DNA of 64,000 nt, from positions 1,638 to 65,637 of the forward strand of contig CANPXR010000001.1 of the NCBI GenBank assembly GCA_947586655.1. Direction: 5' to 3'. Every line of letters begins with the position of its first letter. The stretch's first letter is position 1. Source of the stretch: an uncultured Bacilli bacterium. Lineage in GTDB: Bacteria; Bacillota_I; Bacilli_A; RF39; UBA660. Below the pieces are notes generated by a model. That model saw nothing but the letters and a program-made list of their open reading frames with translations, made no database searches and was not told the DNA's origin. Shown here piece after piece: positions 34,399 through 53,200 of the stretch. The translations under genes were made by a program, and so were the position numbers.

Positions 34399-34692
34399 TT
34401 AATCTATTTTAAGTATTTTTTCTCCAGTTTTAGAATAAAGATATTTTTCCCGTGCATATCTTGCGGCATATTCAGGATTTTTTAGCTTTTCAACATCATC
34501 AGATAGAGTTTTTTCTTCGTCCTTTAGTACTTCTAATTGGTTAACTAGCTGGTTTTTTTCTTTGTTTTTTTCTCTTATCTTAAATACGTTACCCACCGAT
34601 GATATAATCGATAAACTAATTATAAAAAAACAAAATATAGAAGTTAAAACTATACGTCTACGTTCTTTAGAATTTAATTTGCTACCCATCAT
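34399..34692 (-). CDS. divIC: Septum formation initiator (DivIC/FtsB family)
   Basis: 97 aa; N-terminal TM plus coiled coil. yabP-yabQ-divIC order as in Bacillus. Confidence 0.6.
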   Translation of the reverse strand: MMGSKLNSKERRRIVLTSIFCFFIISLSIISSVGNVFKIREKNKEKNQLVNQLEVLKDEEKTLSDDVEKLKNPEYAARYAREKYLYSKTGEKILKID

Positions 34693-34738
34693 ACCAACTC
34701 CATTATAAGTACATTATATAATTAAATTTTAAAAAATT

Positions 34739-35011
34739 CTAGGGTTTTTTGTCCTTAAAGTAAAGAAGATGACAAAATAAACCGCCAATTATCAAAAAAA
34801 TAACTACATAGTAATTTAAAATACCATAATCTATTTTATAAAGTAAAAAATAAAAAATAATCACGTGAGAAAAGCAAAATAATAGTTCACTTATGATCTT
34901 CATAAATTTCTTTTTAAACTTAACCATTCTTAATAACTTAAAGGTAGCTAAAAAAAACATCCCATATATAAAAGAATAGAAAATAACCTTAAACTGACTT
35001 TCTAAATTCAT
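34739..35011 (-). CDS. yabQ: YabQ-like spore cortex biosynthesis membrane protein
   Basis: 90-aa multi-TM protein immediately after yabP (1-nt junction). Confidence 0.45.
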   Translation of the reverse strand: MNLESQFKVIFYSFIYGMFFLATFKLLRMVKFKKKFMKIISELLFCFSHVIIFYFLLYKIDYGILNYYVVIFLIIGGLFCHLLYFKDKKP

Positions 35012-35301
35012 TATTTAAACAACCTTGATAACATTGAATCTTCCTTCTTTGATTTTCCAGCATCTAAATATGAGAAGCCATCTATGATACCCTTAATCAT
35101 TATAGTACCATCATAGGTATCTAATTTTATTATTTCTAAGTCTCTACCTTTTATTCCTAAAGAACCCAGACTAGTTTCAAGAAGAAACTCTTCATTATCA
35201 AAACTATCAATTTTAGTTATTCCACTTATTGTTATGTTTTGCCTTTCAGTTATCATTATATTATGATTAATCGATTCTACTTTATCAGCGGTTTTATCCA
35301 T
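35011..35301 (-). CDS. yabP: Sporulation protein YabP
   Basis: 96 aa; conserved YabP core (…ITISGITKIDSFDNEEF…). Confidence 0.75.
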   Translation of the reverse strand: MDKTADKVESINHNIMITERQNITISGITKIDSFDNEEFLLETSLGSLGIKGRDLEIIKLDTYDGTIMIKGIIDGFSYLDAGKSKKEDSMLSRLFK

Positions 35302-35352
35302 AAGTCCCTCCTGATAAAGTATATTAAAAAAAAAGAAAAATATGATAGTATA

Positions 35353-35610
35353 TTAATCCTCTTTATTATAAGCTTCTTCTACTGCATCATCTATTTTCTT
35401 TCTAAGTTCGGTATTAATTGGATGAACATAATCTTTATATTTTCCATCCTGCATTTTTTTGTTTGGCATAGCTGCAAAGATTCTTGTATTTCCCTTTATA
35501 ATTCTAATTCCATTTACCTTTAAACAATTATCAAAAATTATTTCCGCATAACCTATCATTCTAGAATTATCTTTATTTTCTTTCTGAACCGATACACTAG
35601 TTATTTCCAT
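35353..35610 (-). CDS. spoVG: Septation protein SpoVG
   Basis: 85 aa; MEITSV…GYAEI…NGIRI… strongly conserved. Confidence 0.9.
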   Translation of the reverse strand: MEITSVSVQKENKDNSRMIGYAEIIFDNCLKVNGIRIIKGNTRIFAAMPNKKMQDGKYKDYVHPINTELRKKIDDAVEEAYNKED

Positions 35611-35658
35611 ATGATCACTCCTTTTACATTAACATCAATATAATTTTACCATAATAAT

Positions 35659-35684
35659 GAAAAAAATAGCAAAATTATTGCTAT
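35659..35684 (-). terminator. Terminator overlapping the stop of the 723-aa adhesin gene
   Basis: ATAGCAAaattaTTGCTAT hairpin followed by a T7 run on the minus strand. Confidence 0.45.
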
Positions 35685-37852
35685 TTTTTAAATTTTTTTC
35701 TAAGTATTATCACAATTGCAAGTAAAACTAACAACATAGAAATAATTAGAATATAATTTGGAACCTTTCTTCCCGTAATTATTGTAACGACTAATTCCGC
35801 AAAAGATTTACTTCCTGTTTTTCTAACCTTTTGATCAACCATTTCTACTAAGTAATAGCCATCTTTATCACTATCTTTGATGGTAACAAGTGAGGTTGAG
35901 TCTTTATCTTCAATAAGTTCATATCCATCTGGTGCTTCTTTTTCAACAACCCTGTATTCACCAGGTGATAGCTTTGAGATAAGCGCAATACCTTTTTCTT
36001 CGCCTTCAGGATTTCCATCTTTAGTAGTTATTATATATGTTGCACCATTATCACTTTCTTTTAGATTCTCATCATAAACATAATTACCTTCTGCTGTTTC
36101 TTTTAATAACATATCTTTATAGACATTATTAATCCTTTTTTGAAGAGAAAATTTACCACCTGCTATAAGATTACCATCTTCATCTTTCTTTTGAAATTCT
36201 AAACCCGCGAACCCATTAGTAAACGATACGTTTTTATCGGATCCACAAACGTTAATTTTTTTAGTAGGTTCAGATGGCAACGTAAGACCTTGCGGTGCCT
36301 TTGTTTCTGATATGGTATAACTACAATTTGTTAAAGTGTATACTTTAAACCTGCCCTTACAAGTTTTTAGCTTCGTAGTAGCATCCTTTTCATCTTTGTT
36401 AGAAATATCATACTCACCAGGTTTTATCTCTTTAAAATAAAGTGTTTTACCATTTTCCATTATCTCAAACTCAGGTCCAGTGTAATTATCAGTACCACAA
36501 CCATCATCTAAATCAATAATATTTCCTTTTTCATCAACCGTCTTTTTAGTTAAGTTAAACACCTTGTTAGAATCAGTTATGGATATAGTTCCATAACTCG
36601 TAGATCCTGCTATATTTGATGCTGAAACAGTTACAGCACGTGGAGTTGAATTAAGCTCATATCCAGGTGGAGCATATGTTTCCTTTACATAGTAGGTACC
36701 TGGATTAGGAATACTTTGAAATGTAGCAGTACCAGTTTTATCAGTTGTTACTGTACTTAATACTTTTGTACAAGAACTATTTGAGCAAATACTAAATTTT
36801 GCACCACTTAACGCTTTTTGATCTAAAGATGCTTTTTTTGTTATTTTTAATTGGTATTTAGGAGTATATACTTTTATGTACGCATTATTTGTTGTACCTA
36901 CTATACCAATAAGATTTTGTGAATCAGCATGGTAATATGCTTTAAGCGTACCACCATTTTTGTTATAAATAGCAATCTTTACCATCTTTGGACTATTTTC
37001 TTCAATAGGATTTGAACTTGAAATAGTAATAGAATCATTTGTTTTTGAAACCTCTAATCCGGATTGATTCTGAATAGACCAATAACGAAAATTGGTATCC
37101 TTAATGGTAACCGAATATTTTTTACTTGACGTATTCCAAGAAAGTGCTATCTTTTTTGCTTGCTGCTCTGTACTAAACTGATTAGGAAATTTATTAAAAG
37201 AATTATTTATGGCATCCACTATACGTTTATATTCAACGGCAAGTGTCTCTGGATAATTTTTAGCCACATACACATTATAAAAACTATTACTATGATTGTT
37301 ATCTGGTACATAACTTTTAAAACTAGTTCTTTCACCAGTTGCAACTTCCCAAATTAATCCCTGTGCAGCATAAGTCCTATATATTGAAAGTAATTGTGAG
37401 CCAGAGGAAGGACAGTTAACCGTTTTTTTATTATTATTAGTAATGGTTGGAAGCAAGCTTTGATCCGTTATTTTTTCAGCAAAGGTTAGAATCTGCCTTA
37501 TAAGATTCTTCTTTGTATTGTCTATTTTAATACCTTTATTATTAAGATTTTCAAAAGGCTGTTCAGTATAACTTGCACTATTTAAGTGCCTCCCTGGTTC
37601 AACACAATAAACATGCTGTCTATTAATGTTATAAACACCTATATATCCGCCATCTCTTTCACCAGAAATTTGATTCAATTTATATTTAGTACCTTTTAAG
37701 CATGAATGGTATACCCACCCAGAAGAATTAGCTGCCTTTACGTTAAAAAGGAAAAAGAAGAATGTAATAATTACTAAAGTTACTAAAACAATATTCTTTC
37801 TAAATATTTTACTCATTAACATCACCTTCTTCTTCACTTGTTCCCGCAACAA
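35681..37852 (-). CDS. Cell-surface protein. Signal peptide, N-terminal Cys-containing domain (possible thioester domain), two SpaA/Cna-B-like domains, C-terminal TM with a basic tail. The true start is probably near 37816–37822.
   Basis: 723 aa. SpaA-like blocks (LSGAKFSI…KTGTATFQSIPNPGTYYVKETYAPPGYEL; GEYRVVEKEAPDGYEL). C-terminus …ILIISMLLVLLAIVIILRKKFKK with no LPXTG. YCVEPG and AQGLIW resemble the Cys and Gln motifs of thioester domains. Confidence 0.6.
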   Translation of the reverse strand: MLREQVKKKVMLMSKIFRKNIVLVTLVIITFFFFLFNVKAANSSGWVYHSCLKGTKYKLNQISGERDGGYIGVYNINRQHVYCVEPGRHLNSASYTEQPFENLNNKGIKIDNTKKNLIRQILTFAEKITDQSLLPTITNNNKKTVNCPSSGSQLLSIYRTYAAQGLIWEVATGERTSFKSYVPDNNHSNSFYNVYVAKNYPETLAVEYKRIVDAINNSFNKFPNQFSTEQQAKKIALSWNTSSKKYSVTIKDTNFRYWSIQNQSGLEVSKTNDSITISSSNPIEENSPKMVKIAIYNKNGGTLKAYYHADSQNLIGIVGTTNNAYIKVYTPKYQLKITKKASLDQKALSGAKFSICSNSSCTKVLSTVTTDKTGTATFQSIPNPGTYYVKETYAPPGYELNSTPRAVTVSASNIAGSTSYGTISITDSNKVFNLTKKTVDEKGNIIDLDDGCGTDNYTGPEFEIMENGKTLYFKEIKPGEYDISNKDEKDATTKLKTCKGRFKVYTLTNCSYTISETKAPQGLTLPSEPTKKINVCGSDKNVSFTNGFAGLEFQKKDEDGNLIAGGKFSLQKRINNVYKDMLLKETAEGNYVYDENLKESDNGATYIITTKDGNPEGEEKGIALISKLSPGEYRVVEKEAPDGYELIEDKDSTSLVTIKDSDKDGYYLVEMVDQKVRKTGSKSFAELVVTIITGRKVPNYILIISMLLVLLAIVIILRKKFKK

Positions 37853-40800
37853 CTAATATCTGCAAATCATCATCATCAACCGCAGCATAGTTAACGAAGG
37901 AACCCGCTTCTTTTCTTGATATATCAAATGCAATGGTAAGATATTTCTTCTCTCCACCAGCAATTAATTGATCAGATAACGTATTATTTTCTAGGTACCC
38001 TTGTTCCGTCATTACCCAACCTTTATTTTCTTCATAACTATCGTTAAATGTCATGCCATCTGGCACATAATCTTTTACTAAATAAATATAGCCCGGATAA
38101 TAACCAACATTTTCAAGTTCTATCGTATAAATAACTTTTATACTTACATTACTTATATCTTTTACGTCTAACTTAGCTAACGTAACGTTACCATAATCTT
38201 TTATAGTAGATACACCTAATTTGTTAGTAGTTATTGCTCTTGTTACGTACTTTGTTAGTTTTACAGAATATATTTTTCTTAGTGCAAGTCCAAGGTTAAC
38301 ATTACTAACAGTTCTAGTATTATTAGTAATTTGAATATTATCTGTTCTAATTATTGGAAGTATTTTATTATCTTCATTAGACGGGTCATCAACTTCACAA
38401 TCATTTCCATCACATGTTTCTTCGTTATCTTTAGATTCATTGTCGGTACTTTTTGCATTAGTGTTAACCTTATTAGGTTCTGTTGCCTTAAAAGAAGATG
38501 TAATAGATTTATCTAGTAATACTTGATATGGTGAAATCCCATATTTAGCGGTATTATAATCCGCAACAACGTAATACGTTCCAGGATCTAGATCAGATAA
38601 ACTATAATTTCCTTTTTCATCGGTAGTTGTAGTTTTTATCAATTCATCATTAGATGCATTATATAACTTTAACGTTACACCAGAAACCTTTTTTTCGGTT
38701 GAATCCATAATACCATTAGAATCAAAATCTTCCCAAACAGTACCAGTTATTCTTTTACTAATAACACTAATAGTTAGTGGTTTTATGGTTTTTACTATTT
38801 CTTTACCATTTTCATTTCTAATTAAATATGAACTAATCTTATATGAATCATCCGTTTTGTTACCAATTGGATTTATCTTTATACTTTGTTCATAAGTTTT
38901 TCCAGGCTCTAAACTGATTCCACTAACCTTAATGGCAGAAACACCTAAATAACCATCGCCTTGGTATTTAGAGCATTGTTCCCATGCTATTTCCTCACTT
39001 GACATTTTATCATTTAATAATGCTGGTAAACTAGTTGTACATAAAGCATTTGTTGGCACATCAGAAAGAGTATAAGTTCCAGTATAATTATTATTTTCGT
39101 TCTCGACTGAATTATATGGAAGAATGGTTATAACTTCTAAATTAGAATGCGTTATTTTGTTACTATCATTATTATATAATTTTGTACTTACACTAAAACT
39201 AGTTTCTTTAGATATAGCAGGATATGGTGTATATAGTGAATAAGAAATTACTTCATTATTTTGGTATGTTATGTTTCTGGTTGTTGTCCTTAACTCAGCA
39301 CTTGAAGAATCACTAACTTCAGTTGTCGACGTCGCTTGAATCATGACCTTAATAGGAAGCTTAGTACCAGAAGAAATATCAATGTCATAGCTCGTTTCAA
39401 ATACAACTGGGTCAATCCACTCATTGATACGTTTTCCTTTTAGTACATACCTAAGTTTTGTACTACCACCAGTATTGCTAGTAGTTGGAAGATCATAATT
39501 TTCATTATAAACATAATTAACACCCTTAGGCAATTCAACTTCAACAATAACCTCTTTTAAATCAGAAATTCCTGCAATATTGGTATTAACTAATTCAGCT
39601 GGCATGCTAACGCTTGGATATATTTTCCAAACAGAGCTGTTTACGTCAGCAGCATTAATTACAACATCTTGGTTAATATCATTAATAAATACATCCGTTC
39701 TAGCCTTAAACGCAGTAACGTTTATAGAACTATTACTAGATACAGTTCTTGTTTGAGATCCGCTATTTTCATTTTCATCAAATGATGATGAAGAAGTAAG
39801 CGTAATTTTTCCGGCGTTATTTCCAACTGATGTTACTAATCTAATTCTAAAATCAACTACCGTTCCAGGCTTAACATTTTTTAAAGTGTATGTTAGGTAA
39901 GATAATCTTAGTTTATCATTTTTTGATAAAGCATCATTTAAAGCATCAAAAGTATCATAAGATTTTGCATCACCTACTGTACAAGAAGTGCCTGTTTCAC
40001 CCATTTCACATGCATAATATTTTACCGTTACGTTGTCCTTTAAATCTTCGTTTATGTAATAAGGTCCTTGTTCCTCTACGTTCGTACCATATTCAATCAT
40101 GGTAAAAGGTGCGGTTGGATTACTTGATGTTGATATAGCGTCGCCAATAGGAATTGTTGTTGTAAGACTCTTTATGTCATTATCTCCATCACTAGAATAA
40201 CTAAATAAAGACCTTAAAACAACTTCTTCACCATAAGATAAATAATCATTTTCTAATAACTTATTTAGTTTGCCATCTTCCTCTTTATTAAAGGTTAATT
40301 CATTTGTCTTTGTTCCAGCAGAATAAAATTTATTAATAACACCATCAGACTCGGCGTTACCAACTTTTAATTTAACTGTTATATTATCAGTTATACCTTC
40401 ACTACGCTCTGATTTAGCATTTACAAAATATGATCCTAATGCAACAAAATCATTCCCATATAATCTAATTGATCCATCTGATTTTATTCCTTCTATATTA
40501 AAATCATATTTAGTTTGTATATTAACGGTGTTTTTTGCTTCTAATTCGAAATCATTTTTATCAGTTATTGTATAAACAGCGTTATAAGTACCCGCCTTTG
40601 TTTTATCAATGGCTGTTTCTTCGCTTGTTGCAGGATTATAATATTTAACTGAACATTTATTTTCAGTATTACACTCTGTGTCCACATCGTCAACTGCTAT
40701 GTGAGGATTACCAAAAGAAGAACCATCAGACGAGGTATAAATCGTACTTGCAGTAAGAGTCTGGGCTTTTGTGTAAGATAAACTTTCAAGCACTTTAACT

Positions 40801-42317
40801 GTCCTCGTTAAAGTAAATCTTTCCTGACCTTCAAAACTTGGCTCATTATCACCCTCAGGATTAAGTGTATAAGTTACCGTATACGTGCCAACGCTATTAG
40901 TATCAATTGACGGAACCGGTGCCTCTTCGCCTTCTTTTTTAATTACACTTTCGTAGCTTAAATTAGAAGTTTTACCATTTTTGGAAATACCTTCTTCGCT
41001 ATATTTTTGCCCCTTTAACAAGATGATTTCTTTATTACCATTTAATGAATAAGTATTCTCTCCTACTTTGACGGTTGTTTTTTCACTTACTTTTACGTTT
41101 CTTTTAACCGTTGTAGAACCAGTTGCAGAAGTATACTTATAACTAACGATATATTCTCCAACCGCATTAGTTATATTTTTTTCTTCGATTTGTGTCTCAA
41201 CATTATCTTTTTTAGTTATTTTTTTCTCACATGAATTATTTTTAGCTTTACATATATCTTCGCCATTACCGGTTGCCGATACACCATATTCAGTGTATTC
41301 TTCCCCTACTTCTAAGTTTATTGTTTTATCACCAATTAAGTATAAATCTGGATTTGTATTTTCCGTTACCGTTCCAGACACTCCATCAGAAGATTTAGTT
41401 AAACCCGTAACTTTACCCGAATTATAAACAGAATAACGTTGATAATCATTTTTGTAATGTGGCATTGAGGTTAATAAATTAGAACTTTTGTCATATAATC
41501 CAAAGTACTTACTATTATTACTTTCTAATTCAATTTGAGAATTTATATTATTTACACTTTGTGTTGCCTCTAGCACTAATTTTATATTAGCGTCAAAATA
41601 AAGTCCTTCTAGACTATTTTGATTTTTTAACCTGCTTTTATCAAAGCCTACTAATATACCAAATGGTGCTAATCTTCCGCTGGCATAATCAGAAGATTTG
41701 TACGCTGTTCCAGATATAATTTTTTGCGTTAGTTCTACCTTTTCACTTTCTACTGTAACGGTAGGAATACTACCTATTGTATTATCACCAGATTTTATAG
41801 TTGGCTTTATTTCTTTACCATTTTCAACGTTTCTTACGTTTAGGTATAATTGTTTGGTTTGTTCAACGTTTGGTTCATTATCATAAATGGTAACTTCTAC
41901 GGTTTTTCCACCGTTTGATAATTCATACTTAGAAGTAGGCTCAGAAGTATCCCAAACAGCATCAATATCATCAGGGACACTAGCTTCTATTTCAACGGTT
42001 GATGAAGTCGTTTGATAAGACACTTCATACACTAACGTACTAAAACTTTTAATCGTTGTAATTTCTTGGGTTGAATCTACCTTTTTTGCCTTAACAGCTT
42101 TTAAAGTTGCAACCCCTGTTGAGTCACCTGCAGCATAAACTATTAAAGCAACTATACTAGAAATTAAAAATATACCAATGAATGCTGATATGTACTTATG
42201 CTCTTTAATAAAATTAGTTATCCTTACCTTTTGGATAAGAATCCAATCAACTATTCTAGATTTTAAATTTACCTTTGACATATTCATAGTATAGCCCTCC
42301 AATTTTACTTTATACAC
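37809..42317 (-). CDS. Giant surface adhesin (1502 aa). N-terminal signal anchor, many Ig-like repeats, Cna-B/SdrD-B-like domain, C-terminal DUF11-like domain.
   Basis: Cna-B-type block KVSGVTLKLYNASNDELIKTTTTDEKGNYSLSDLDPGTYYV. C-terminal NVSIKVIYTIELENVGYYPGYIYLVKDYVPDGMTF resembles the DUF11 repeat. Ser/Thr/Asn-rich. Overlaps the downstream adhesin gene. Confidence 0.6.
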   Translation of the reverse strand: MYKVKLEGYTMNMSKVNLKSRIVDWILIQKVRITNFIKEHKYISAFIGIFLISSIVALIVYAAGDSTGVATLKAVKAKKVDSTQEITTIKSFSTLVYEVSYQTTSSTVEIEASVPDDIDAVWDTSEPTSKYELSNGGKTVEVTIYDNEPNVEQTKQLYLNVRNVENGKEIKPTIKSGDNTIGSIPTVTVESEKVELTQKIISGTAYKSSDYASGRLAPFGILVGFDKSRLKNQNSLEGLYFDANIKLVLEATQSVNNINSQIELESNNSKYFGLYDKSSNLLTSMPHYKNDYQRYSVYNSGKVTGLTKSSDGVSGTVTENTNPDLYLIGDKTINLEVGEEYTEYGVSATGNGEDICKAKNNSCEKKITKKDNVETQIEEKNITNAVGEYIVSYKYTSATGSTTVKRNVKVSEKTTVKVGENTYSLNGNKEIILLKGQKYSEEGISKNGKTSNLSYESVIKKEGEEAPVPSIDTNSVGTYTVTYTLNPEGDNEPSFEGQERFTLTRTVKVLESLSYTKAQTLTASTIYTSSDGSSFGNPHIAVDDVDTECNTENKCSVKYYNPATSEETAIDKTKAGTYNAVYTITDKNDFELEAKNTVNIQTKYDFNIEGIKSDGSIRLYGNDFVALGSYFVNAKSERSEGITDNITVKLKVGNAESDGVINKFYSAGTKTNELTFNKEEDGKLNKLLENDYLSYGEEVVLRSLFSYSSDGDNDIKSLTTTIPIGDAISTSSNPTAPFTMIEYGTNVEEQGPYYINEDLKDNVTVKYYACEMGETGTSCTVGDAKSYDTFDALNDALSKNDKLRLSYLTYTLKNVKPGTVVDFRIRLVTSVGNNAGKITLTSSSSFDENENSGSQTRTVSSNSSINVTAFKARTDVFINDINQDVVINAADVNSSVWKIYPSVSMPAELVNTNIAGISDLKEVIVEVELPKGVNYVYNENYDLPTTSNTGGSTKLRYVLKGKRINEWIDPVVFETSYDIDISSGTKLPIKVMIQATSTTEVSDSSSAELRTTTRNITYQNNEVISYSLYTPYPAISKETSFSVSTKLYNNDSNKITHSNLEVITILPYNSVENENNNYTGTYTLSDVPTNALCTTSLPALLNDKMSSEEIAWEQCSKYQGDGYLGVSAIKVSGISLEPGKTYEQSIKINPIGNKTDDSYKISSYLIRNENGKEIVKTIKPLTISVISKRITGTVWEDFDSNGIMDSTEKKVSGVTLKLYNASNDELIKTTTTDEKGNYSLSDLDPGTYYVVADYNTAKYGISPYQVLLDKSITSSFKATEPNKVNTNAKSTDNESKDNEETCDGNDCEVDDPSNEDNKILPIIRTDNIQITNNTRTVSNVNLGLALRKIYSVKLTKYVTRAITTNKLGVSTIKDYGNVTLAKLDVKDISNVSIKVIYTIELENVGYYPGYIYLVKDYVPDGMTFNDSYEENKGWVMTEQGYLENNTLSDQLIAGGEKKYLTIAFDISRKEAGSFVNYAAVDDDDLQILVVAGTSEEEGDVNE

Positions 42318-42359
42318 TTTAATTTAATCACAAATATAAAGAAAAATCAACAATAGGGC

Positions 42360-42388
42360 AACAAAAAAAGTTCATATATCATGAACTT
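42360..42388 (-). terminator. veg Rho-independent terminator overlapping the TGA stop
   Basis: AAGTTCATgatatATGAACTT followed by TTTTTTTT on the minus strand. Confidence 0.55.
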
Positions 42389-43417: not shown

Positions 43418-43861
43418 TTAATAATACAGCGAAAAGTCCTTTTTATTTTCTATGGGCTTGATATTTGAAAAATTATTTTCTTTAGCATTACTTTTTATTT
43501 GTTTTAAAATTACTTTATCCTTTGAATATACGTTAATAAAAGTATTATCCACAACAATAAGTAATAACTTACAATCACTATTAAAATAATCATCATAACT
43601 TTTAATTTCACTAAATCTATCACTTTTATTATATAACTGTAGTGTTAAAAAAATGGGATAATGAGTAGTTTTTATTAATTCTTTAAATTCGGCGTTTAAA
43701 TAAATTTCTTTATTAAAGAAATTAGTTGCTCTTTCATTAAGAACCTCATCATAAACCACCTTCCAAATACCATCTTTAAAATCTACGTTTTTAAGTATTT
43801 TTAAAAGAAAAACGTCATACTTATTTGGCATTTCAAAGCTAATTCCTATCATAATAACCAT
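43418..43861 (-). CDS. Hypothetical 147-aa cytosolic protein, last gene of the ABC module
   Basis: ORF with coding-like composition; no recognisable family. Confidence 0.4.
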   Translation of the reverse strand: MVIMIGISFEMPNKYDVFLLKILKNVDFKDGIWKVVYDEVLNERATNFFNKEIYLNAEFKELIKTTHYPIFLTLQLYNKSDRFSEIKSYDDYFNSDCKLLLIVVDNTFINVYSKDKVILKQIKSNAKENNFSNIKPIENKKDFSLYY

Positions 43862-43904
43862 ACTTCCTTTTTAATTTATTTATCTATTAAAAATATCCTA
43901 TTTT

Positions 43905-44546
43905 TCATTTGTCTTGTTTTTTCGTAACTAGACCCGCATCCACTTCATATATTTCATCAGCTAAACCATAAATGTCTTCTTTTATGTGAGATGCTAAAAT
44001 AATTAGTTTCCCTTTGTTTTTTTCTTCTTTTAAAATTTTTCTTATATCATTTGCAGTACTGTTTTCTACACCATTAAATGGTTCATCAAAAATCATTATA
44101 TCGGGATTTTCCATTAAAACTTGTGCAATCCCAAGTTTTTGTTTGGTTCCTAATGAATACTTTGAATACTTTTTATTTGCTTCACTTTTTAGATTAACCT
44201 TAACTAAAGTAGCATTAATTTCATCATCCCCTATTTTATTTTGAATGGAAGAAAGAAGTTTTAAATTTTCAAATCCAGTTAAATCAGGTAAAAAATTTGG
44301 TTTTTCTATTAATGCCCTAGTATTTTTAGGAAAACTATTTTCCTTTAGATAATTAACACCATCAAGTGAAATTTCACCTTCGGTTACGTTATAAAAACCA
44401 CATATTATCTTAAGTAATACGCTTTTACCGCTACCATTTCTTCCAACGAAACCATATATTTTCCCGCCCGTAAACTTCAAATTTACATCTTTTAATACTT
44501 CGTTATTTCCAAACCTTTTTGATACGTTTTTTATTAATAATTCCAT
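43905..44546 (-). CDS. Short ABC transporter ATP-binding protein (ABC-2 type)
   Basis: Walker A GRNGSGKS, degenerate signature YSLGTKQK, Walker B IMIFDEP. 213 aa. Confidence 0.8.
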   Translation of the reverse strand: MELLIKNVSKRFGNNEVLKDVNLKFTGGKIYGFVGRNGSGKSVLLKIICGFYNVTEGEISLDGVNYLKENSFPKNTRALIEKPNFLPDLTGFENLKLLSSIQNKIGDDEINATLVKVNLKSEANKKYSKYSLGTKQKLGIAQVLMENPDIMIFDEPFNGVENSTANDIRKILKEEKNKGKLIILASHIKEDIYGLADEIYEVDAGLVTKKQDK

Positions 44547-44555
44547 AAGTCCTCC

Positions 44556-45242
44556 TTAAACGTTTTCAATTATTTTTTTATTAAATAATTTAAATATAAT
44601 GGTAAGTAAAAATAAAAATATTATGTTTATTAAAATCATTCCTAATATTTGGTTATTACTTAACCCATAAATATTTTTAGGTATTATAGCCATTAGAAAA
44701 GCAAAAACAAAATAAGGAATAAACTTCATCTTACTTGTGCATGCACTAATGACATAAATTATAATAAATAAAAATTGAATAAATATTATATAAATAAAAT
44801 CTGAAAAAAGTAATCTGAGTGCACTGTTAAAATTTGCACTTTTTCCTAATAATACTACCGCTAAAAATAGTATGACATACTGGGTTAACTTTAAGATAAA
44901 AGTTATGTTTATGAATACTATGCTCTTTTTTAATAACCACTTTGAAGGCTTTATTCTTAAGAAAATATTATCTAATTGATAAGCAATGTCCTTAACGTAA
45001 ATATCAACTATCAAAAAGATATATATGGATAAATTAAATAATAACATTATAAATTGTAATATACTACTTTGATTAAAACCAATCCAATTTGTTCCCATAC
45101 AAAGATTAACTCTATTAACAAAGGTAATTTTTGCAGCAATATTTATAAGAAGCAAAATAAGTGGAACTAAAAATAATGCAAGTAATATTTTTTTCCTTTT
45201 TTTTATTAAATAACTAATATCATTAATCATTAAATATTTCAT
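44556..45242 (-). CDS. ABC-2-type integral membrane protein (~6 TM)
   Basis: Highly hydrophobic 228 aa; 4-nt ATGA overlap with the upstream gene. Confidence 0.5.
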   Translation of the reverse strand: MKYLMINDISYLIKKRKKILLALFLVPLILLLINIAAKITFVNRVNLCMGTNWIGFNQSSILQFIMLLFNLSIYIFLIVDIYVKDIAYQLDNIFLRIKPSKWLLKKSIVFINITFILKLTQYVILFLAVVLLGKSANFNSALRLLFSDFIYIIFIQFLFIIIYVISACTSKMKFIPYFVFAFLMAIIPKNIYGLSNNQILGMILINIIFLFLLTIIFKLFNKKIIENV

Positions 45243-45991
45243 GTTATCACCATTTTTTTACTTTTTAAAGAAATTTTATACATAATATATACTATCAATC
45301 CTAATATAAACATAAATAATATTGAAAAAATAACCTCCGTCATAAAAGAAGAATAGCTAAGACTTAAAAAGTAATTCCACGGAATTATTGTAAAACTACT
45401 TCCTAATGACGTACTTTGTAGTGGTAACATAAACCCCACCATAAATATTGCGCTAGTAATCATAGTTATCTTTTCTTTTAAAATAATATAGATTGAAGCT
45501 GAAATTAACATAATTAATATTGATAATACAATATATCTACCCATGTAGAAAATAGTATAAACAAAATTACTTATGCCATAATTTTGATAACTATATATGT
45601 TAAAATTACATGGTTTAAAAAAAATCAATATTACAAAATAAAATATGAAAAATAATAAAAAGAAAAATAGATTTAAAACGATGGTTGTTTTAAATAATTC
45701 TTTTATATAATTAGCCTTATTTTTTAAACGCATTATATAAAAACTAAAATTCTTATTAAAGATCGTACAGGTATTTAACGTGTTTAAAAATAATAAAGCA
45801 AACATAAAAATATTAAATATATAAAACTCAAACGGTAAAAGAATTGAATCAAAGAAATTATCTTTAGCAATCCCTAAAACAATTGCTGCGTATAATGCCA
45901 AAATTATTAACATTAAAAACAATAATCTAAATCTATCAGTAGATGTAATATAGCTTAGTACCTTTATTTGATTATGCAGTTTGTTTTTCAT
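45239..45991 (-). CDS. ABC-2-type integral membrane protein
   Basis: 250 aa, multi-TM; translationally coupled to its neighbours. Confidence 0.5.
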   Translation of the reverse strand: MKNKLHNQIKVLSYITSTDRFRLLFLMLIILALYAAIVLGIAKDNFFDSILLPFEFYIFNIFMFALLFLNTLNTCTIFNKNFSFYIMRLKNKANYIKELFKTTIVLNLFFFLLFFIFYFVILIFFKPCNFNIYSYQNYGISNFVYTIFYMGRYIVLSILIMLISASIYIILKEKITMITSAIFMVGFMLPLQSTSLGSSFTIIPWNYFLSLSYSSFMTEVIFSILFMFILGLIVYIMYKISLKSKKMVIT

Positions 45992-46928
45992 TTGATATTA
46001 TAACCCCTTCCTTGTTTCGATAATATAAGTGAATAAATAAGAAGGATAATAATTGTATTACAAATGATACTAATATTGCAATTAAACAAATATTTCCATC
46101 AAAAAACCAATAACCCGTAATGTTAAAAATATCCGTCAAATTTTTAAAGCCTAAAATTTTATTTATTACGAAGGCATAAACCACTATGTAAATAAACAAA
46201 TCAACCAACAAAAATAACACATAGCCCATAATGATTGCAACTAATTTATTTTTATTTTTTAAACATGCATACAACCCAATATTACAATATAATATGTTTA
46301 AAAAGTATTGTGATATACAAATTGCAAAACCATATAAGAAAAAGTGCGAATACTTCCAATGGTCATAAACGGCAAAATTCTTAAATTCTTCTGTTAGAGG
46401 GACATTAAAATTAAACCTAGTTACTACCATAGAAATAACAAAAATAAGTATAAGTGCCAGTGGAGTAATTAAAGAAATCTTAAAAATTTGCTTTCTTATC
46501 TTTTTTAAATAGTCATTATACTCCATTCTCATTAAGTAATTTTTTATCATCCCACTTGAAAAATCAGAATGGATAGTACCAACTAATGCAATTATGATTA
46601 ATAATGGAGAAAAGAATTGTAACATACTAAAAATTGTATGCTCAACGATATTACACGTAAGGGTAATAGTATCCAATTTTTTATATTCTTCTTTTGGGTC
46701 ACTTGTTTTAATATATTTCTCTAAATTTTCTTCATTAGGAAAACGCTTACAATACTCATGGTTAGGATTCTTTTTTTCATAACAATTTTCTTTTATAGCA
46801 TAATAACCTTTTGCATAAGAAAAATTATCTTTATAATATTGAAAAAAAGAGCAACCTATAATAAACACGATTATTAGAAACGATAAAATTATAAATTTGT
46901 TTCTTTTAAAAGTCATGGTAACCTCCAT
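45972..46928 (-). CDS. ABC-2-type permease with a Cys-containing ~100-aa extracytoplasmic loop after TM1
   Basis: 318 aa; TM1, then a Cys/Tyr/Lys-rich ectodomain, then 5 TMs. First gene of the operon; a putative TTGAAA-17-TATACT promoter lies at ~46940–46975. Confidence 0.5.
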   Translation of the reverse strand: MEVTMTFKRNKFIILSFLIIVFIIGCSFFQYYKDNFSYAKGYYAIKENCYEKKNPNHEYCKRFPNEENLEKYIKTSDPKEEYKKLDTITLTCNIVEHTIFSMLQFFSPLLIIIALVGTIHSDFSSGMIKNYLMRMEYNDYLKKIRKQIFKISLITPLALILIFVISMVVTRFNFNVPLTEEFKNFAVYDHWKYSHFFLYGFAICISQYFLNILYCNIGLYACLKNKNKLVAIIMGYVLFLLVDLFIYIVVYAFVINKILGFKNLTDIFNITGYWFFDGNICLIAILVSFVIQLLSFLFIHLYYRNKEGVIISNEKQTA

Positions 46929-47026: not shown

Positions 47027-47860
47027 TTAAAATTTTTCATTTGTTTTACTTAACTCGTTTGAAATTTTAACAAATTCCTCTATCGTAATATTTTCTGCTC
47101 TTTCATTTATATCTTTATTAAAAGTTTTTAATATACTATTTATTTTATTTAAATCATAGTCTGATAAGTTATTTTTTAGCGTTTTTCTTTTTTGAGTAAA
47201 GGCGGTTTTAACAAGTTTAAAAAAATGCGGTTCATTATTTAACTTTATTTTATCTTGTTTTTTATTAAAAACGACCACGGCAGAATCAACGTTTGGTTTT
47301 GGATAAAAAACATTTCTAGATACAATAAAAGCTTTTTTTACATCAAAATAATAATTTAAGAAGATGGTTAAAGAGTTATAGCTTTTTGTACCTGACATAG
47401 CAGAAAATCTATCGGCAACCTCTTTTTGTACCATAACAATTATTTTTTCTACGTCTATTTGTTCATTAATAAACTTACTTATTATTGGAGTTGTTATATA
47501 ATAAGGAAGGTTTGCGATAACCATGATGTTTTCATACTGATATTTTTTTATGTCTTCTTTTATGTTACGATTTAGAAAATCATCATAAATAACGTCAACG
47601 TTTTTATATTCTTCAAGTATCTTATCTAGAGGTTTTTTCAAACTTAAATCTATTTCATAACCCAATACTTGTTTTGCTTTTTCACTTAATTTCTTAGTTA
47701 ATGCTGCAGCTCCTACCCCAATTTCTATTACAAGGGTATTTTTTGTTATATTACCCAAGTTAACAATATTATTTAGTACGTTTTGATCTAGCAAAAAGTT
47801 TTGACCAAACTTCTTTTTAAAAACAAAGTCATTTTCTTTTAAAATTTCCCTTACATTCAT
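47027..47860 (-). CDS. rsmA: 16S rRNA (adenine1518/1519-N6)-dimethyltransferase
   Basis: KsgA N-terminal motif FGQNFLLD and SAM-binding GxGxG. Confidence 0.9.
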   Translation of the reverse strand: MNVREILKENDFVFKKKFGQNFLLDQNVLNNIVNLGNITKNTLVIEIGVGAAALTKKLSEKAKQVLGYEIDLSLKKPLDKILEEYKNVDVIYDDFLNRNIKEDIKKYQYENIMVIANLPYYITTPIISKFINEQIDVEKIIVMVQKEVADRFSAMSGTKSYNSLTIFLNYYFDVKKAFIVSRNVFYPKPNVDSAVVVFNKKQDKIKLNNEPHFFKLVKTAFTQKRKTLKNNLSDYDLNKINSILKTFNKDINERAENITIEEFVKISNELSKTNEKF

Positions 47861-47865
47861 AATTA

Positions 47866-47896
47866 CTCCCTATACAAAAAAGCAAATAAAATAATT
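47866..47896 (-). terminator. Terminator after the yabE-like gene
   Basis: GCAAATAAAAtaaTTTTATTTGC 10-bp stem followed by a T-run on the minus strand. Confidence 0.45.
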
Positions 47897-47924
47897 TTAT
47901 TTGCCTATTTTACTTAATTTTAAA

Positions 47925-48515
47925 TTATCTCCAGGTAACCGCTACATCAATTTGGGTTGGGTTTCTTTTAGCGAAACCTCCGGTATCACAAACTATTGCG
48001 TATCCTAGTGAACTCTCTATTATAGTTCCGCGTGGACGAATATCATAATTAGCAGCAACCATTACATAATCACCAAGCATTTTTACCCCGTCATCACGAA
48101 TCCAATATGGATATTTTTCTTCTGAATATCCCATTCTTCTCATCGTTCTTATCACGCTAGTCATGTTTAAATTATAATAAGATTCTTTCCCTGAAGGACC
48201 AATTACTACACCCTTACTTTTTGAAAGAACATCGCCATTCCAACCACCCTTTAAAACCGTAGTAGTACGAGTTGTGGTAGTAACTTCTTTAGTAGTCGTT
48301 GCAGACATCGTTTCCTCGGTGATTACGTTCGTAGTTGGCTTTACAGACGCAACATAGTTGTTAGGATCAAACGTCTTTTTTGTGGTAGAAACAGTAATTA
48401 CATCTCCACTTCCTGCGGAAAACAATATTCCGGCTTTTGAAAAACCAATAAATGCCATTAAACAAATCACAAGGACTAATAATGCACCCTTAATTTTTCT
48501 ATTTAAATGTTTCAC
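47925..48515 (-). CDS. 3D-domain cell-wall protein (YabE/RpfB-like). GTG start.
   Basis: N-terminal TM, Thr-rich linker, C-terminal 3D-domain-like sequence (…DYVMVAANYDIRPRGTII…VCDTGGFA…IDVAVTW). tatD-yabE-ksgA order as in Bacillus. Confidence 0.6.
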   Translation of the reverse strand: MKHLNRKIKGALLVLVICLMAFIGFSKAGILFSAGSGDVITVSTTKKTFDPNNYVASVKPTTNVITEETMSATTTKEVTTTTRTTTVLKGGWNGDVLSKSKGVVIGPSGKESYYNLNMTSVIRTMRRMGYSEEKYPYWIRDDGVKMLGDYVMVAANYDIRPRGTIIESSLGYAIVCDTGGFAKRNPTQIDVAVTWR

Positions 48516-48571
48516 TTTTTCACCTCATAACCCATTTATACGGGTTGTCAATAATGATATCATAAAAGATA

Positions 48572-49324
48572 CTACAAGTCAAATTTACCACAAACAGCTT
48601 TGCCAGTTTCACTAATTACTTCTTGTAAAGAAAGACCTTTTATTTTAGATATTTCTTTAGCAACTAATATTACGTTATCAGGCACGTTGACTTTTCCACG
48701 AAATGGTTCTGGTGATAAATAGGGACTATCTGTTTCTAAAGAAAGATTACTAATATTAACTTCTCTTACAACCTCTTTTATCTCTTTTGCGTTTTTAAAG
48801 GTAACTATTCCACCAATACCTAGTAAAAAACCTAATTTAATGAATTCACTAGCCATTTCTAAACTTCCTGAATAACAATGGATAATACCACTACTATTAT
48901 ATTCTTTTAATAAATTATATGTATCTAAAAACGCTTTTCTACAGTGAACTATAACTGGTAGATTATTTTCTTTAGCTATTCCTAACATTTTTTTAAATAC
49001 TAAAATTTGAGAATCTTTATTTTCCTTTGTCCAATAATAATCCAATCCAATCTCACCAATTGCCACAACTTTTCTTCTACTCGCCAAGATCTTTATTTTT
49101 TGATACACATCGTCATTAAAATCAGAAATGTTTTGAGGCCCAATACCAACGCATGCATAAACATTTTCATACTTATTCGCCAAATTTACCGCCTCAAAAC
49201 TACTTTGTAAATCATACCCATTTATAATTATTTTGTTAACGCCAGATGCTAATGCTTTTTTTATTACAACTTCTGGGTTTTCATATTCACTTTTTAAAAC
49301 ATGACAATGAGAATCAATTAACAT
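48572..49324 (-). CDS. tatD: TatD-family metal-dependent DNase (YabD)
   Basis: MLIDSHCHV start and conserved TatD His/Glu/Asp motifs. Confidence 0.85.
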   Translation of the reverse strand: MLIDSHCHVLKSEYENPEVVIKKALASGVNKIIINGYDLQSSFEAVNLANKYENVYACVGIGPQNISDFNDDVYQKIKILASRRKVVAIGEIGLDYYWTKENKDSQILVFKKMLGIAKENNLPVIVHCRKAFLDTYNLLKEYNSSGIIHCYSGSLEMASEFIKLGFLLGIGGIVTFKNAKEIKEVVREVNISNLSLETDSPYLSPEPFRGKVNVPDNVILVAKEISKIKGLSLQEVISETGKAVCGKFDL

Positions 49325-49351
49325 TTATACCACCAAAAAAATTATAACACA

Positions 49352-49606
49352 TTAATGATATAATTTAATTATTAAAAACTTTATGAATAATATAAACACA
49401 ATAGCAAAATAAACTAAATCCTTAAGTACACCACTTTCTAAGTATATAAGTGCTATTATAGATAACAATATTAAGAAAAATATAACTTTAGTTATAAAAC
49501 TCTTCTTATCTTCTGTTAATGTGTTATGATGCATTACATATCTTCCTTTCATTAGGATTTGTACAACAATAACAACGTTAAAAATATAACATAATATAAA
49601 AATCAT
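49352..49606 (-). CDS. Hypothetical small membrane protein (start uncertain)
   Basis: Two predicted TM helices; no homolog recognised. Confidence 0.3.
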   Translation of the reverse strand: MIFILCYIFNVVIVVQILMKGRYVMHHNTLTEDKKSFITKVIFFLILLSIIALIYLESGVLKDLVYFAIVFILFIKFLIIKLYH

Positions 49607-49662
49607 GTAAATAACTTGGACAATTAAATACTTAATTAGACAAAATTTTACAATTATTTTAA

Positions 49663-50232
49663 TTAAATTGATTCAAAGTAACTCTCTAAAAACGAAATAG
49701 AAAATTTTATCAATTCATCATGACTTTCTAAAAAATTATTACCTAAGTTTTCTAAGATTAAGTATCCCGCTAAATCACCGTTAGGAGAAATAGGAAAAAT
49801 ATAATATGGCTCTTTTAACCTATAATCTTTTGTAAGTAATATTTTTTTATTTATATCATTTAATACACGTCCATCAAATTCAGAAGAAAGTTTATCATTT
49901 AATAAATCTAATACATTTGAGAAAACTATTTCATCAATGTTAGTTACAAAAACATTTGAATTCGTTTTAGATCCTAGTGCTTTAATAAATAAACTTATGA
50001 ACTCATCTTTTTTATTTATTATTGTGTGTTTTTTAAGTAAAATCGTTTCCATGTCACTTAAAAATATCTCAAGTAATTCTCCTGGTTTAATATGCATGTT
50101 TTTTCTTATTTCCTTTGGGATTACAACCCTTCCCAACTCATCAATTCTTCTTGTTATTCCAGTAGTTTTCATACAATTCATCCCTTCTTTTTTAGAATGT
50201 ATAAAACTGGTAAATTTATTCAATAACATCAA
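49663..50232 (-). CDS. spoVT: Stage V sporulation protein T (AbrB-N domain plus GAF-like C-terminus). The likely start is MKTTGITRRID at ~50172.
   Basis: MKTTGITRRIDELGRVVIPKEIRKN is nearly identical to B. subtilis SpoVT MKATGIVRRIDDLGRVVIPKEIRRT. mfd-spoVT adjacency. Confidence 0.8.
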   Translation of the reverse strand: MMLLNKFTSFIHSKKEGMNCMKTTGITRRIDELGRVVIPKEIRKNMHIKPGELLEIFLSDMETILLKKHTIINKKDEFISLFIKALGSKTNSNVFVTNIDEIVFSNVLDLLNDKLSSEFDGRVLNDINKKILLTKDYRLKEPYYIFPISPNGDLAGYLILENLGNNFLESHDELIKFSISFLESYFESI

Positions 50233-53200
50233 GCATTTTTATCAAATAATAAATAAAATGCATTTTTAAATTTTTTAGTTCTAAAGATATTCTTAATATA
50301 TTATTAGAATATTTGACTTCAAAATTAGAACTAATATTAAATAACCTTGATAAAAGCTCCGCACCATCTTGTTTTTTTGAAACGATATTATTAAAGTATA
50401 TGGTTATAACGTTTTGTAACTGTTCTACCTTAAACACACCTTTTTTCTTTGCGTTAACTTGAAATAATTCTTCCAACATATAAATTACTATATCTTCATC
50501 TAACTTGCCAAATCGGTCGGTTAATTCTTGCTTTATTTTAATAAAGTTATCATAACTATCAATCATATTTATTTTTTTATGGATTTCTATTTTTAAATCC
50601 TGGCTATCAGCATATTTATCACTTATGTGGGTTGCAACACTTATAAATGGCGTTTCATCTACGGGTTCATCTTTTTCTACAAAGTCATTACCCTTTAATT
50701 TTTCCACTTCTTCATTTAATATTTTTAGGTACATATCATATCCAATCGAATCTATAAAACCAGACTGTTCTGCCCCTAAAATATCTCCTGCTCCACGTAT
50801 TGCAAGGTCTCTTGCCGCTAGGGCATATCCACTACCTAATTCTGTAAATTCTTTTATGGCATCTAATCTTTTAACCGCAATATCATTTAACTCTTTGCTT
50901 TTATTATACATTAAATATGCGTACGCAAGCATTTTGCCACGACCTATTCTTCCCCTTATTTGATAAAGTTGACTAAGTCCAAAATAATCTGCATCTAAAA
51001 CAATTAAAGTATTAACATTTTGTATATCAATACCTGTTTCAATTATGGTGGTACATACTAAAACATCAAATTGTTTATTAATAAAACTCTCCATGGTAGT
51101 TTCAATTTGGTTTTTATTCATTTGTCCATGAATATAAGTAACTTTTGATTCAGGTACCAATCTTTTGATTCTTGACACCTGATTCTCTATCTTAGACACA
51201 CTATTATATAGTATAAACACCTGCCCATCACGAGCTAATTCTTTATAAATAGCATCCTTTATAACTTGATCATTCTCCCTTAAAACATACGTTTGAATTG
51301 GGTACCTAAATGCCGGTGGGGTTTCTATTAAAGATAAACCTCTTACTCCAACTAAAGACATTTGAAGCGTTCTAGGTATAGGAGTTGCTGAAAGGGTTAA
51401 GACGTCTATATTCTCTTTATATTTTTTTATTTTTTCTTTATGGGTTACGCCAAATCTCTGTTCTTCATCAATAACTAAAAGTCCTAAATCCTTATACTTA
51501 ACGTCATTACTTAATAATCTATGTGTACCTATTATTAAATCTATCTTACCGCTTTTTAAGTCATTTAATATACTTTCCTTTTTACTAGAAGAAACAAATC
51601 TGTTTAATACCGCAATGTTAACACCAAAACCAGAAAATCTTTCCATGGCGTTATCGTAATGTTGTTTAGACAAAATGGTTGTAGGACATAAAAAGCAAGC
51701 TTGTTTTCCAGATTTAATGGCCTTAAATATGGCTCTAAAAGCAACTTCTGTCTTACCATAACCAACATCACCACATAATAATCTATCCATTGGATAAGGT
51801 TGTTCCATGTCTTCTTTTATTTCTTTTATTACTTTTAATTGATCTTCCGTTTCTTCATATCCAAACCTACTTTCAAATAATAATTGTTCTTCATCATCAC
51901 AAAGAAACGAAAAACCTTTGGAAAGTTTTCTTTTAGCAGAAGTTTCAAGCAATTCCTTTGCAATATCCTTAACCTTTCCTTTTACTTTAGCTTTCTGCTT
52001 TGCCCATTCCGTACCACCAAGTTTATTAATTTTTGGCTGTACTCCTTCATTTGATGAATATTTACTTATGTATTCTATTTTCTCTACAGGAATATATAGT
52101 TTATCAGAATCCTTATACATAACCATTAAAAAGTCCTTTTTTAATCCTTTTACGGTTAAGGTTACAATTCCTAAATATTTTCCTACGCCATGGTTTATAT
52201 GAACGACAAAATCACCAGGTTTTAACTTATTTATATCTTTGATTTTTGACCCATATCTAAACTTACTTTTATATGTAATTGTCTTGTTATTTCCATAAAG
52301 TTCTTGGCTAGATAAATATACAAAATCATTTATTATAAACCCGTTTGAGATAGGCTCTTTTATAATGTTTATTACTTTATTACTTAGTGTTTTTTCGTCT
52401 GTTAAGATTGTTTTTACACTAGATTTATTCATAAAATCATTAATCTTTTTATTGTCTTCTAAAAAGGCAATAATGGTTTTGTTCATGTTAATCATTTTTA
52501 ATAAAAAGTGATTAATCCTATCATAATTACCATTAAACTTTTCAATTTCAGATGAAGAATAGTTTTCCACAAGATAATTATTATCGTCATTATAATTATC
52601 CACAGAAGAAATATTTAAATATTTTTCTGGAATTAATCTTTTTAATTCATGCATATAGTTTTTTACATCAAACGTGTCCGTTTCTTTAAATTCCACTATT
52701 TCTTTTAAAATATTTAAATAAGATAAATTTATTGATTTTAAATCAATAAATACTAAAATGGCATTAGATACATAATCCGATAATGATGATACTTTATTAA
52801 CAACCCTAGGAAGAAGACTTTGTCTATTTGGTACGTCACTTATTTTCTTTTCGTTTATAAATTCAGTAAAAGGCATTATTTTTACTTCATTTTTTTGACT
52901 TGTGGATAACTGTGTAGAAGCGTCAAATTCCCTTATATTTTCTATTTCATCATCAAAAAATTCTATTCTTATTGGAGAATCATATCCATAAGGAAATACA
53001 TCCAAAATATATCCACGGTTAGAATACTCTCCGGTTTTTGTTACTAGGCTCTCTTTTTTATATCCAATTTTATTTAAATTATTTAGTAATTCATCACGAT
53101 TTACTACGTCTTGAACCGTAAGGTTTATGTTCAAACTTTTCCATAAGTTTACATCAGGTAAAAATCTTAAATAACCCATTAAATTAGTAATAACTATTTT

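Follow-up and report, generated by a model that had tools for sequence, protein, structure and literature searches.

Two adjacent genes on the minus strand of a 64,000-nucleotide stretch of DNA from an uncultured Bacilli bacterium (GenBank contig CANPXR010000001.1, positions 1,638 to 65,637; hereafter the window, whose positions are used throughout) are likely to form a coupled, sigma-A-type surface operon that is fixed in a clade of uncultured low-GC gut Bacilli, in which the downstream gene, B, would encode a covalently binding adhesin of the TIE type and the upstream gene, A, its fibrillar partner. Gene B (35681..37816, minus strand, as are all parts of both genes) gives a TIE-type protein of 711 aa which, judged from its sequence, is best described as belonging to a new and divergent subfamily within the Class II thioester domain (TED) adhesins, with an architecture like that of the Bacillus anthracis protein BaTIE and a non-LPXTG tail. 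Gene A (37809..42287) gives a giant secreted or membrane-tethered surface protein of 1492 aa. An initial annotation, made from the sequence of the window without database searches, had read B as a thioester-type adhesin on a SpaA/CnaB stalk, and the profile evidence below bears this out.

The head of B (residues 29-322; 36851..37732) is assigned to the Class II TEDs by profile homology, motifs and structure prediction, and its homology rests on profiles and relatives, not on a Pfam score of its own. A word-index homologue search with the head (334 aa) returned nothing, and an exhaustive phmmer search against 1.84 billion representatives returned 41 relatives only, nearly all of which carry the motifs Y-C-[IV]-E and [AT]-Q-x-[LI]-[IV]-W-E. 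When 35 head domains were combined into a profile, a single solved structure was matched, the TED of SaTIE (PDB 6FX6; E 3.5e-14), and 29 of the 35 relatives individually match the Pfam TED family PF08341 (best E 4.9e-14). The profile also drew nine proteins from a set of 5.8 billion, all nine with precomputed PF08341 matches, and hhalign against one of these gave a probability of 99.5% (E 9.8e-23).

The residues expected to form the thioester stand out from an alignment whose overall column identity is 21%. Cys71 (YCVE; codon 37604-37606) and Gln152 (AAQGLIW; codon 37361-37363) are present in 35/35 aligned relatives, and Trp156 and Gln300 (SQNLI, a ΦQζΦΦ motif; codon 36917-36919) in 34/35 each, the sole exception at Gln300 being a sequence truncated before that point. 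Given their invariance at so low a column identity, the Cys motif and the AQ..IW Gln motif are not chance occurrences. In the profile alignment to 6FX6, Cys71 lies opposite SaTIE Cys296 and Gln300 opposite SaTIE Gln467, which are the two residues that form the thioester in SaTIE, where the Gln of the TQxxΦW motif is a helper on helix α2 and is not bond-forming (PMC6194298). Cys71 is accordingly placed as the predicted thioester Cys and Gln300 as the predicted bond-forming Gln, with Gln152 and Trp156 making up a TQxxΦW-like helper motif that has AQ in place of TQ. The initial annotation was thus right to see a thioester Cys motif in YCVEPG, but the Gln of AQGLIW, which it took for the reactive one, corresponds to the helper. 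Its concern that a Cys-Gln spacing of about 80 residues was unusually short arose from this mis-assignment: Cys71 and Gln300 are 229 residues apart, within the Class II range, for which spacings of 171 (SaTIE), 204 (EfmTIE86) and 188 (TIEpLS20) have been reported (PMC6194298, PMC8092201).

Structure prediction is consistent with this assignment. An AlphaFold2 model of the head built with a 39-sequence alignment (pLDDT 91.2, pTM 0.91) orders its secondary structure as N-terminal strands ending at the Cys, helices, a seven-strand block and a terminal hairpin around Gln300, and places Gln152 and Trp156 on a predicted helix at 112-131 (mature-domain numbering). This predicted order matches the published Class II topology, in which a seven-stranded β-sandwich is inserted between helix α3 and the Q/P hairpin (slipknot; PMC6194298), and the seven-strand block is a candidate for that insert. 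A single-sequence prediction of full-length B gave no usable model (pLDDT 40). The head is also the fastest-evolving part of the protein, with identities between species of 24-51% compared with 55-85% for the stalk and tail; rapid change around fixed reactive residues is the pattern expected of an adhesin head under diversifying selection. It is preceded by a predicted signal peptide (residues 1-28, MSKIFRKN..FNVKA / ANSS; 37733..37816), whose layout is the same in 8 orthologues and whose putative cleavage site lies at the slash.

Behind the head, the SpaA family PF17802 is matched in three stretches (E 1.9e-33; 114.9 bits against a cutoff of 23.1), so that the domain type named in the initial annotation is correct and its count of two is raised to three; a sequence search of the PDB with the stalk matched collagen adhesins and pilins. 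Conservation in the stalk and tail was counted over 21 full-length relatives with a mean column identity of about 35%. Each of the CnaB/SpaA-type domains contains a candidate isopeptide triad. In domain 1 (residues 323-420; 36557..36850), which gives the best PF17802 stretch and matches to PDB collagen adhesins and pilins, Lys327 and Glu379 are found in 21/21 relatives and Asp/Asn415 is kept in the 8 orthologues; in domain 2 (residues 421-537; 36206..36556) the triad is Lys424 (20/21), Glu504 and Asn534 (both 21/21); and in domain 3 (residues 538-663; 35828..36205), the third PF17802 stretch, likewise with pilin matches, Lys543, Glu625 and Asp/Asn661 are all found in 21/21. The three domains are probably rigidified by Lys-Asn/Asp isopeptide bonds. 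Domain 2 additionally has four Cys (DGCGT, KTC.G, L..C.YT and VCG; B residues 436-517, window ~36266-36511) that occur in 8/8 orthologues, which points to one or two disulfides within a domain of the CnaB type, a feature unusual for Firmicute surface proteins.

The C-terminal tail (residues 664-711 and stop codon; 35681..35827) comprises AELVVTIITGRKVPNY, a 17-residue hydrophobic helix and RKKFKK, and its consensus in the relatives is A673-E-L-v-V-T-I679-x-T681-G682-R683-x-x-x-N687-Y688 followed by the hydrophobic helix and RKKxKK. Ala673, Thr681, Gly682, Arg683 and Tyr688 are invariant (21/21), and the same tail is found in 31 of the 41 representative homologues of B, 26 of them with TGR..NY. 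By these counts the tail is conserved far beyond the needs of a plain anchor. As the initial annotation had noted, the hydrophobic C-terminus and RKKFKK come without an LPXTG; the tail reads VTIITGRKVPNY and contains no Pro and no known variant pentapeptide.

Among characterised proteins the closest in layout is BaTIE (BA5258/BasC; PDB 6FWV), with which B shares a signal peptide, an N-terminal Class II TED, three CnaB-type domains (PMC6194298) and, at the C-terminus, a hydrophobic helix followed by a basic tail. With BaTIE, SaTIE and EfmTIE86 it has in common the [YFL]CΦζ Cys motif, the TQxxΦW-like helper and the ΦQζΦΦ Gln motif (PMC6194298). However, B differs from these three in having the strongly conserved TIxTGR..NY in place of LPXTG, in a head that by itself falls below Pfam TED and whose thioester is a predicted one, and in being always paired with a giant upstream gene, at a locus that belongs to the core chromosome of uncultured gut Bacilli. 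TIEpLS20 (p34 of the B. subtilis plasmid pLS20) likewise combines a Class II TED (Cys68/Gln256) and three CnaB-like domains with the lack of a canonical sortase signal, but it belongs to a conjugation operon, has no C-terminal transmembrane helix and ends in a toast-rack-like region (PMC8092201), whereas B has a transmembrane tail and lies in a housekeeping neighbourhood without type IV secretion system genes. Class I TED adhesins (S. pyogenes Cpa and SfbI; C. perfringens CpTIE) use the same Cys-Gln thioester chemistry with ligand amines that would be expected of B, but lack the β-sandwich insertion and have a shorter Cys-Gln distance, and Cpa is the tip of a sortase-assembled pilus (PMC4450167).

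Protein A is built from recognisable surface-protein modules. Its best Bact_surface_Ig-like repeat (Pfam PF16403, E 5.7e-14) covers residues 414-482 (40842..41048), the family being matched in two stretches when full-length A is scanned and in three when the 300-600 region is scanned alone, and an SdrD B-like domain follows at residues 1181-1282 (38442..38747; PF17210, E 4.3e-17, 62.8 bits against a cutoff of 29.7), with SdrD itself matched in a PDB sequence search (E 2.4e-9). Both the Ig-like repeats and the SdrD-B-like domain of the initial annotation are thereby substantiated. The DUF11-like domain proposed for the C-terminus (residues 1321-1480, followed by an acidic tail; 37848..38327) is a borderline case, in that the likeness holds and membership is not proven: scanned alone it reaches 24.3 bits against DUF11 (PF01345, E 4e-5), just below the cutoff of 24.6, the scan of full-length A gives no DUF11 match, and two metagenome relatives of the domain carry a precomputed PF01345 match. 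When 12 A-like proteins are compared, conservation peaks in the C-terminal ~160 residues (0.68-0.78) and is also high in the SdrD_B domain and over the first 40 residues. Searching with a profile of this C-terminal domain brought up no more than 24 proteins, most of them metagenome fragments belonging to the same family, and gave no convincing match among solved structures.

Residues 1-52 of A (42132..42287) consist of a basic N-region (..W..IQ.IR..NF.KEHKY.S), after which comes a hydrophobic stretch with VYA at its end, and both the N-terminal motif and the terminal [VI]-x-A are kept in distant A-like proteins (mean conservation of the N-terminal block 0.62). The segment may be a signal anchor, as initially annotated, or a long cleavable signal peptide; the alternative of a cleavable peptide is considered because the stretch ends in the conserved [VI]-x-A, a putative cleavage site. 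Compared with SdrD-type and DUF11 'conserved repeat domain' surface proteins, A is alike in its SdrD_B domain, Ig-like repeats and DUF11-like β-sandwich, but LPXTG, SD repeats and an A-domain are all missing from it, its hydrophobic segment is N-terminal instead of C-terminal, and the family of its C-terminal domain is seen only in metagenome fragments of this clade (the 24 matches).

The two genes appear to be expressed together. The maximal open reading frames (ORFs), from a GTG at 42317 for A (37809..42317, 1502 aa) and from a TTG at 37852 for B (35681..37852, 723 aa), have 44 nt in common, which is how the initial annotation described them. These coordinates are correct for the maximal frames, but ribosome-binding sites place the probable starts further in, at the ATG at 42287 for A, with GGAGG 8 nt before it, and at the ATG at 37816 for B, directly behind AGGTGA, which reduces the overlap between the A stop and the B start to 8 nt, ATGAGTAA. 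On these revised starts the ATGAGTAA overlap is a typical translational-coupling junction. The models of 1492 and 711 aa are also given by independent gene calls on public contigs encoding identical proteins; B residues are numbered here on the 711-aa model, and 12 is added to obtain the numbering of the 723-aa frame.

A putative sigma-A promoter precedes A (42322..42350, minus strand; TTGATT, 17 nt, TG-a-TTAAAT), and an intergenic alignment shows its consensus, TTGAy-17-TGnTTAAAT with an extended -10, to be kept in ten species. The call rests on this cross-species conservation, since a single-sequence scan for consensus promoters performed near chance level (48 sites against 41 expected). Upstream, a hairpin and T-run (42363..42388, minus strand; -9.4 kcal/mol, z -1.7), also conserved across species, end veg and separate it from the pair. 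Downstream, the intrinsic terminator of the pair, AAAAAAUAGCAA / UUGCUAUUUUUU (35660..35689, minus strand), forms a 12-bp hairpin with a T-run over the B stop codon (-11.5 kcal/mol, z -3.85) and is kept in eleven loci. Both AT-rich hairpins were found by folding, having been missed by a terminator scan that demands three G-C pairs. With promoter and terminator both conserved, as the initial annotation had anticipated in giving the locus its own signals, the A-B operon is an independent, probably sigma-A-dependent transcription unit. Two further conserved elements were seen at its edges. An invariant TGTAT(A) box (42311-42316, with homologous positions in loci L001-L007, L012 and L013) lies a few bases downstream of the -10, around the expected transcription start, and may be an operator or an element of the 5' untranslated region. 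Directly after the B terminator, an extended -10, TGGTAAAAT (35643-35651), is kept in 11 loci and presumably drives spoVG.

The distribution of the pair indicates that it is an old, vertically inherited core feature of its clade and not a recent insertion, as it occupies the same slot in all species genomes compared and in distant contigs. A scan of one genome per species yielded seven relatives (L001-L007), all metagenome-assembled genomes from gut samples labelled uncultured Bacilli, Mollicutes or Clostridium, and in 7/7 of these A and B, their order unchanged, lie between veg and spoVG. Their A and B proteins are 48-63% identical to those of the window (51-62% for the A orthologues in the same slot), whereas products of the neighbouring genes are 69-94% identical. 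Far more distant B homologues, with heads ~26-30% identical, are also preceded by a giant SdrD_B-bearing gene: in L012-L014 the pair is again between veg and spoVG, in L016 and L017 it lies between ksgA and spoVG (ksgA-A-B-spoVG-divIC) at a locus from which yabG, veg, yabP and yabQ are absent, and in L015 it is intact in an unrelated neighbourhood. Across these loci A is the obligate giant partner of B. The L016/L017 layout may be the sign of a branch of the clade that does not sporulate. In the window the GC content of the pair (0.30-0.33) is no outlier to that of the flanking genes (0.26-0.35). The initial annotation had regarded the locus as an accessory insertion, a view overturned by the conserved slot in 7/7 relatives and the distant contigs together with this flank-like GC.

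Taken as a TIE-type adhesin with a fibrillar partner, the pair would work as follows. After removal of its signal peptide, B would present a Class II head carrying the predicted internal Cys71-Gln300 thioester, which an amine of a ligand on the host, in mucus or on another cell would attack to give a covalent link. The head would be borne on the three CnaB/SpaA domains, probably stiffened by isopeptide bonds, and the protein would be held at the cell by its C-terminus, that is, by the ..TIxTGR..NY motif, the transmembrane helix and the basic tail, which would either stay in the membrane as an anchor or be cut by a sortase-like enzyme tolerating a variant motif. A would be a co-produced, long fibrillar surface protein, most likely acting with B in adhesion. 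Three negative results weigh against this reading: the B head matches neither the Pfam TED families (PF08341/PF20610, at E up to 1) nor the NCBIfam thioester models (at E up to 10), and a motif scan of the window and 19 loci (360 kb, not whole genomes) found no sortase-like ORF, returning RpoB false positives only.

The manner in which B is anchored leaves two options, since the tail may simply anchor the C-terminus in the membrane, the conserved part being a juxtamembrane element, or may be processed at a variant [TA][IL]xTG. Covalent anchoring to the wall by a sortase or other transpeptidase that recognises [TA][IL]xTG/R instead of LPXTG is possible, if doubtful. Thr681, Gly682 and Arg683, conserved in 21/21, precede a hydrophobic helix and basic tail by the customary short interval, and the NCBIfam model LPXTG_anchor (TIGR01167) scores the tail alone near its threshold (14.8 bits against 15.9) in an alignment that begins at TG. 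Sortase motifs other than LPXTG exist, for example NVQTG and NPQTN, and relatives of the head in conjugative elements end in VPKTG, LPFTG, MPATG or VPNTA, one of them preceding a gene with a weak Sortase Pfam match. However, position 2 of the motif lacks a Pro, and no dedicated model matches the tail, NCBIfam giving neither Firmicu-CTERM nor any other sorting-domain match beyond the sub-threshold one. Nor did the scan described above find an enzyme for such a reaction, and a search of the window and loci for TGR tails returned B orthologues only, with no second protein bearing a tail of this type. Moreover, TIEpLS20, itself a Class II TED adhesin, does without sortase, and its lack of a sortase signal implies that such adhesins can work sortase-free (PMC8092201).

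An alternative that seems unlikely treats the pair as a two-component fibre, in which A is secreted, lacks an anchor of its own and is held by B to form a sortase-independent, pilus-like appendage, A being retained either non-covalently through its conserved C-terminal domain or covalently by attacking the B thioester. The pairing of A and B has outlasted very deep divergence and one relocation, and their 8-nt overlap implies that the two proteins are made in a coupled manner. At the end of its hydrophobic stretch A has the conserved [VI]xA, resembling a signal-peptidase site; it lacks a C-terminal anchor, and nowhere is it more conserved than in its C-terminal domain. The absence of sortase-like ORFs near any locus in the 360-kb motif scan is also in keeping with such a fibre. 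However, the TED head of B evolves fastest, at the identities given above, while A is highly conserved in its C-terminal domain, a mismatch that argues against contact between the head and A, and the conserved N-region of A, on the cytoplasmic side, fits a retained anchor equally well.

About as improbable is a reading that joins these ideas into a sortase-independent, two-protein appendage specific to the clade, with a new anchoring signal in B, A docked on B, and an origin in a domesticated TED adhesin of a conjugative element. Here the invariant TIxTGR..NY, transmembrane helix and RKKxKK of B would be a previously undescribed signal, possibly the substrate of a processing enzyme, and A, exported by means of a conserved signal peptide of unusual length, would dock on B for display, perhaps through covalent capture.

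The origin of the B head bears on a further proposal, that the pair arrived recently as an accessory or mobile adhesin island, possibly a mating-pair adhesin for conjugation like TIEpLS20, which is very improbable and, on gene context, largely refuted. In its favour, the closest head relatives from outside the clade, proteins of Clostridia and other Firmicutes matched by hhalign at 99.5% (P0024 in L018 and P0044 in L019), are conjugative-element TED adhesins, and the B. subtilis map presumably has no A-B locus at this position. These adhesins share the Cys and Gln motifs and SpaA stalks of B, but they have LPXTG-like signals (VPKTG etc.), neighbours encoding VirB4, TrbL and M23 proteins and sometimes a sortase, and no A-like partner. 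Against a recent arrival stand the slot, orientation and regulatory signals, which are alike in every relative examined, an unremarkable GC content, and the finding of no type IV secretion system, relaxase or recombinase gene and no repeat boundary within 10 kb of the pair; the variable part of the neighbourhood is the ABC-transporter cluster at 43905-46928, not A-B. The LPXTG-type relatives lie at 6433-10290 of L018 and 8001-12912 of L019, among genes for TrbL, a VirB4-like ATPase, an M23/NlpC-P60 hydrolase and a recombinase, and in L019 the next gene encodes a 1202-aa SpaA protein with the weak Sortase match. Such relatives suggest that the chromosomal B descends from a mobile-element adhesin.

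Just as improbable is a role for A and B as sporulation or spore-surface components, prompted by the neighbours yabG, veg, spoVG, yabP and yabQ, given a conserved promoter that looks sigma-A-like with its extended -10 and not of a sporulation-sigma type, and the retention of the pair where yabG, veg, yabP and yabQ are absent (L016, L017) and in an unrelated context (L015). Links of the pair to sporulation and to conjugation were both rejected on gene context and promoter evidence.

The genes around the pair all lie on one strand, in the order ksgA, ABC-transporter cluster, DUF2691, yabG, veg, A, B, spoVG, yabP, yabQ and divIC, continuing with mini-RNase III, rlmB, sigH, secE, nusG and rplK. 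Between ksgA and yabG (43418-46928, minus strand), an ABC ATPase (PF00005) is accompanied by three polytopic membrane ORFs (228, 250 and 318 aa; GC 0.21-0.25) without a Pfam match and by the DUF2691 gene. This cluster is absent from 7/7 genomes of related species (DUF2691 occurs in L005 only) and present in a contig of the same species (L008), so that it, and not A-B, is by this comparison the variable accessory insertion here; as a guess, it could be a transporter of the bacteriocin-immunity type. The order of genes at 34399-35610 and 47027-53512 is far from that of the B. subtilis map: spoVG is directly followed by yabP-yabQ-divIC and then mrnC-rlmB-sigH, and ORFs upstream of ksgA (189, 1098 and 250 aa; 48572-53512) resemble pth, mfd and tatD by comparison with the gene order of L017 (pth-mfd-tatD-glucosaminidase-ksgA). 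The 'missing' purR/ispE/sspF block, which the initial annotation held to have been replaced by A and B, is one of many rearrangements and no clean replacement.

TED adhesins are, to our knowledge, the sole bacterial proteins that bind their targets covalently, and they have until now been studied in pathogens and on plasmids, where they are nearly always sortase substrates. The subfamily represented by B escapes current Pfam and NCBIfam models, and in an uncultured gut lineage it is a fixed core-genome component that is invariably linked to a giant partner and bears a different, strongly conserved C-terminal signal. For annotators it supplies a rule, namely that the Gln of AQ/TQxxΦW is not the reactive one. 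Nothing known is overturned, and the value of the finding would be incremental unless the anchoring or the partner hypothesis is true. The tail may constitute a new anchoring motif, and the A-B pair offers a testable candidate for the way in which wall-poor or sortase-poor commensals may attach to the host or to mucus.

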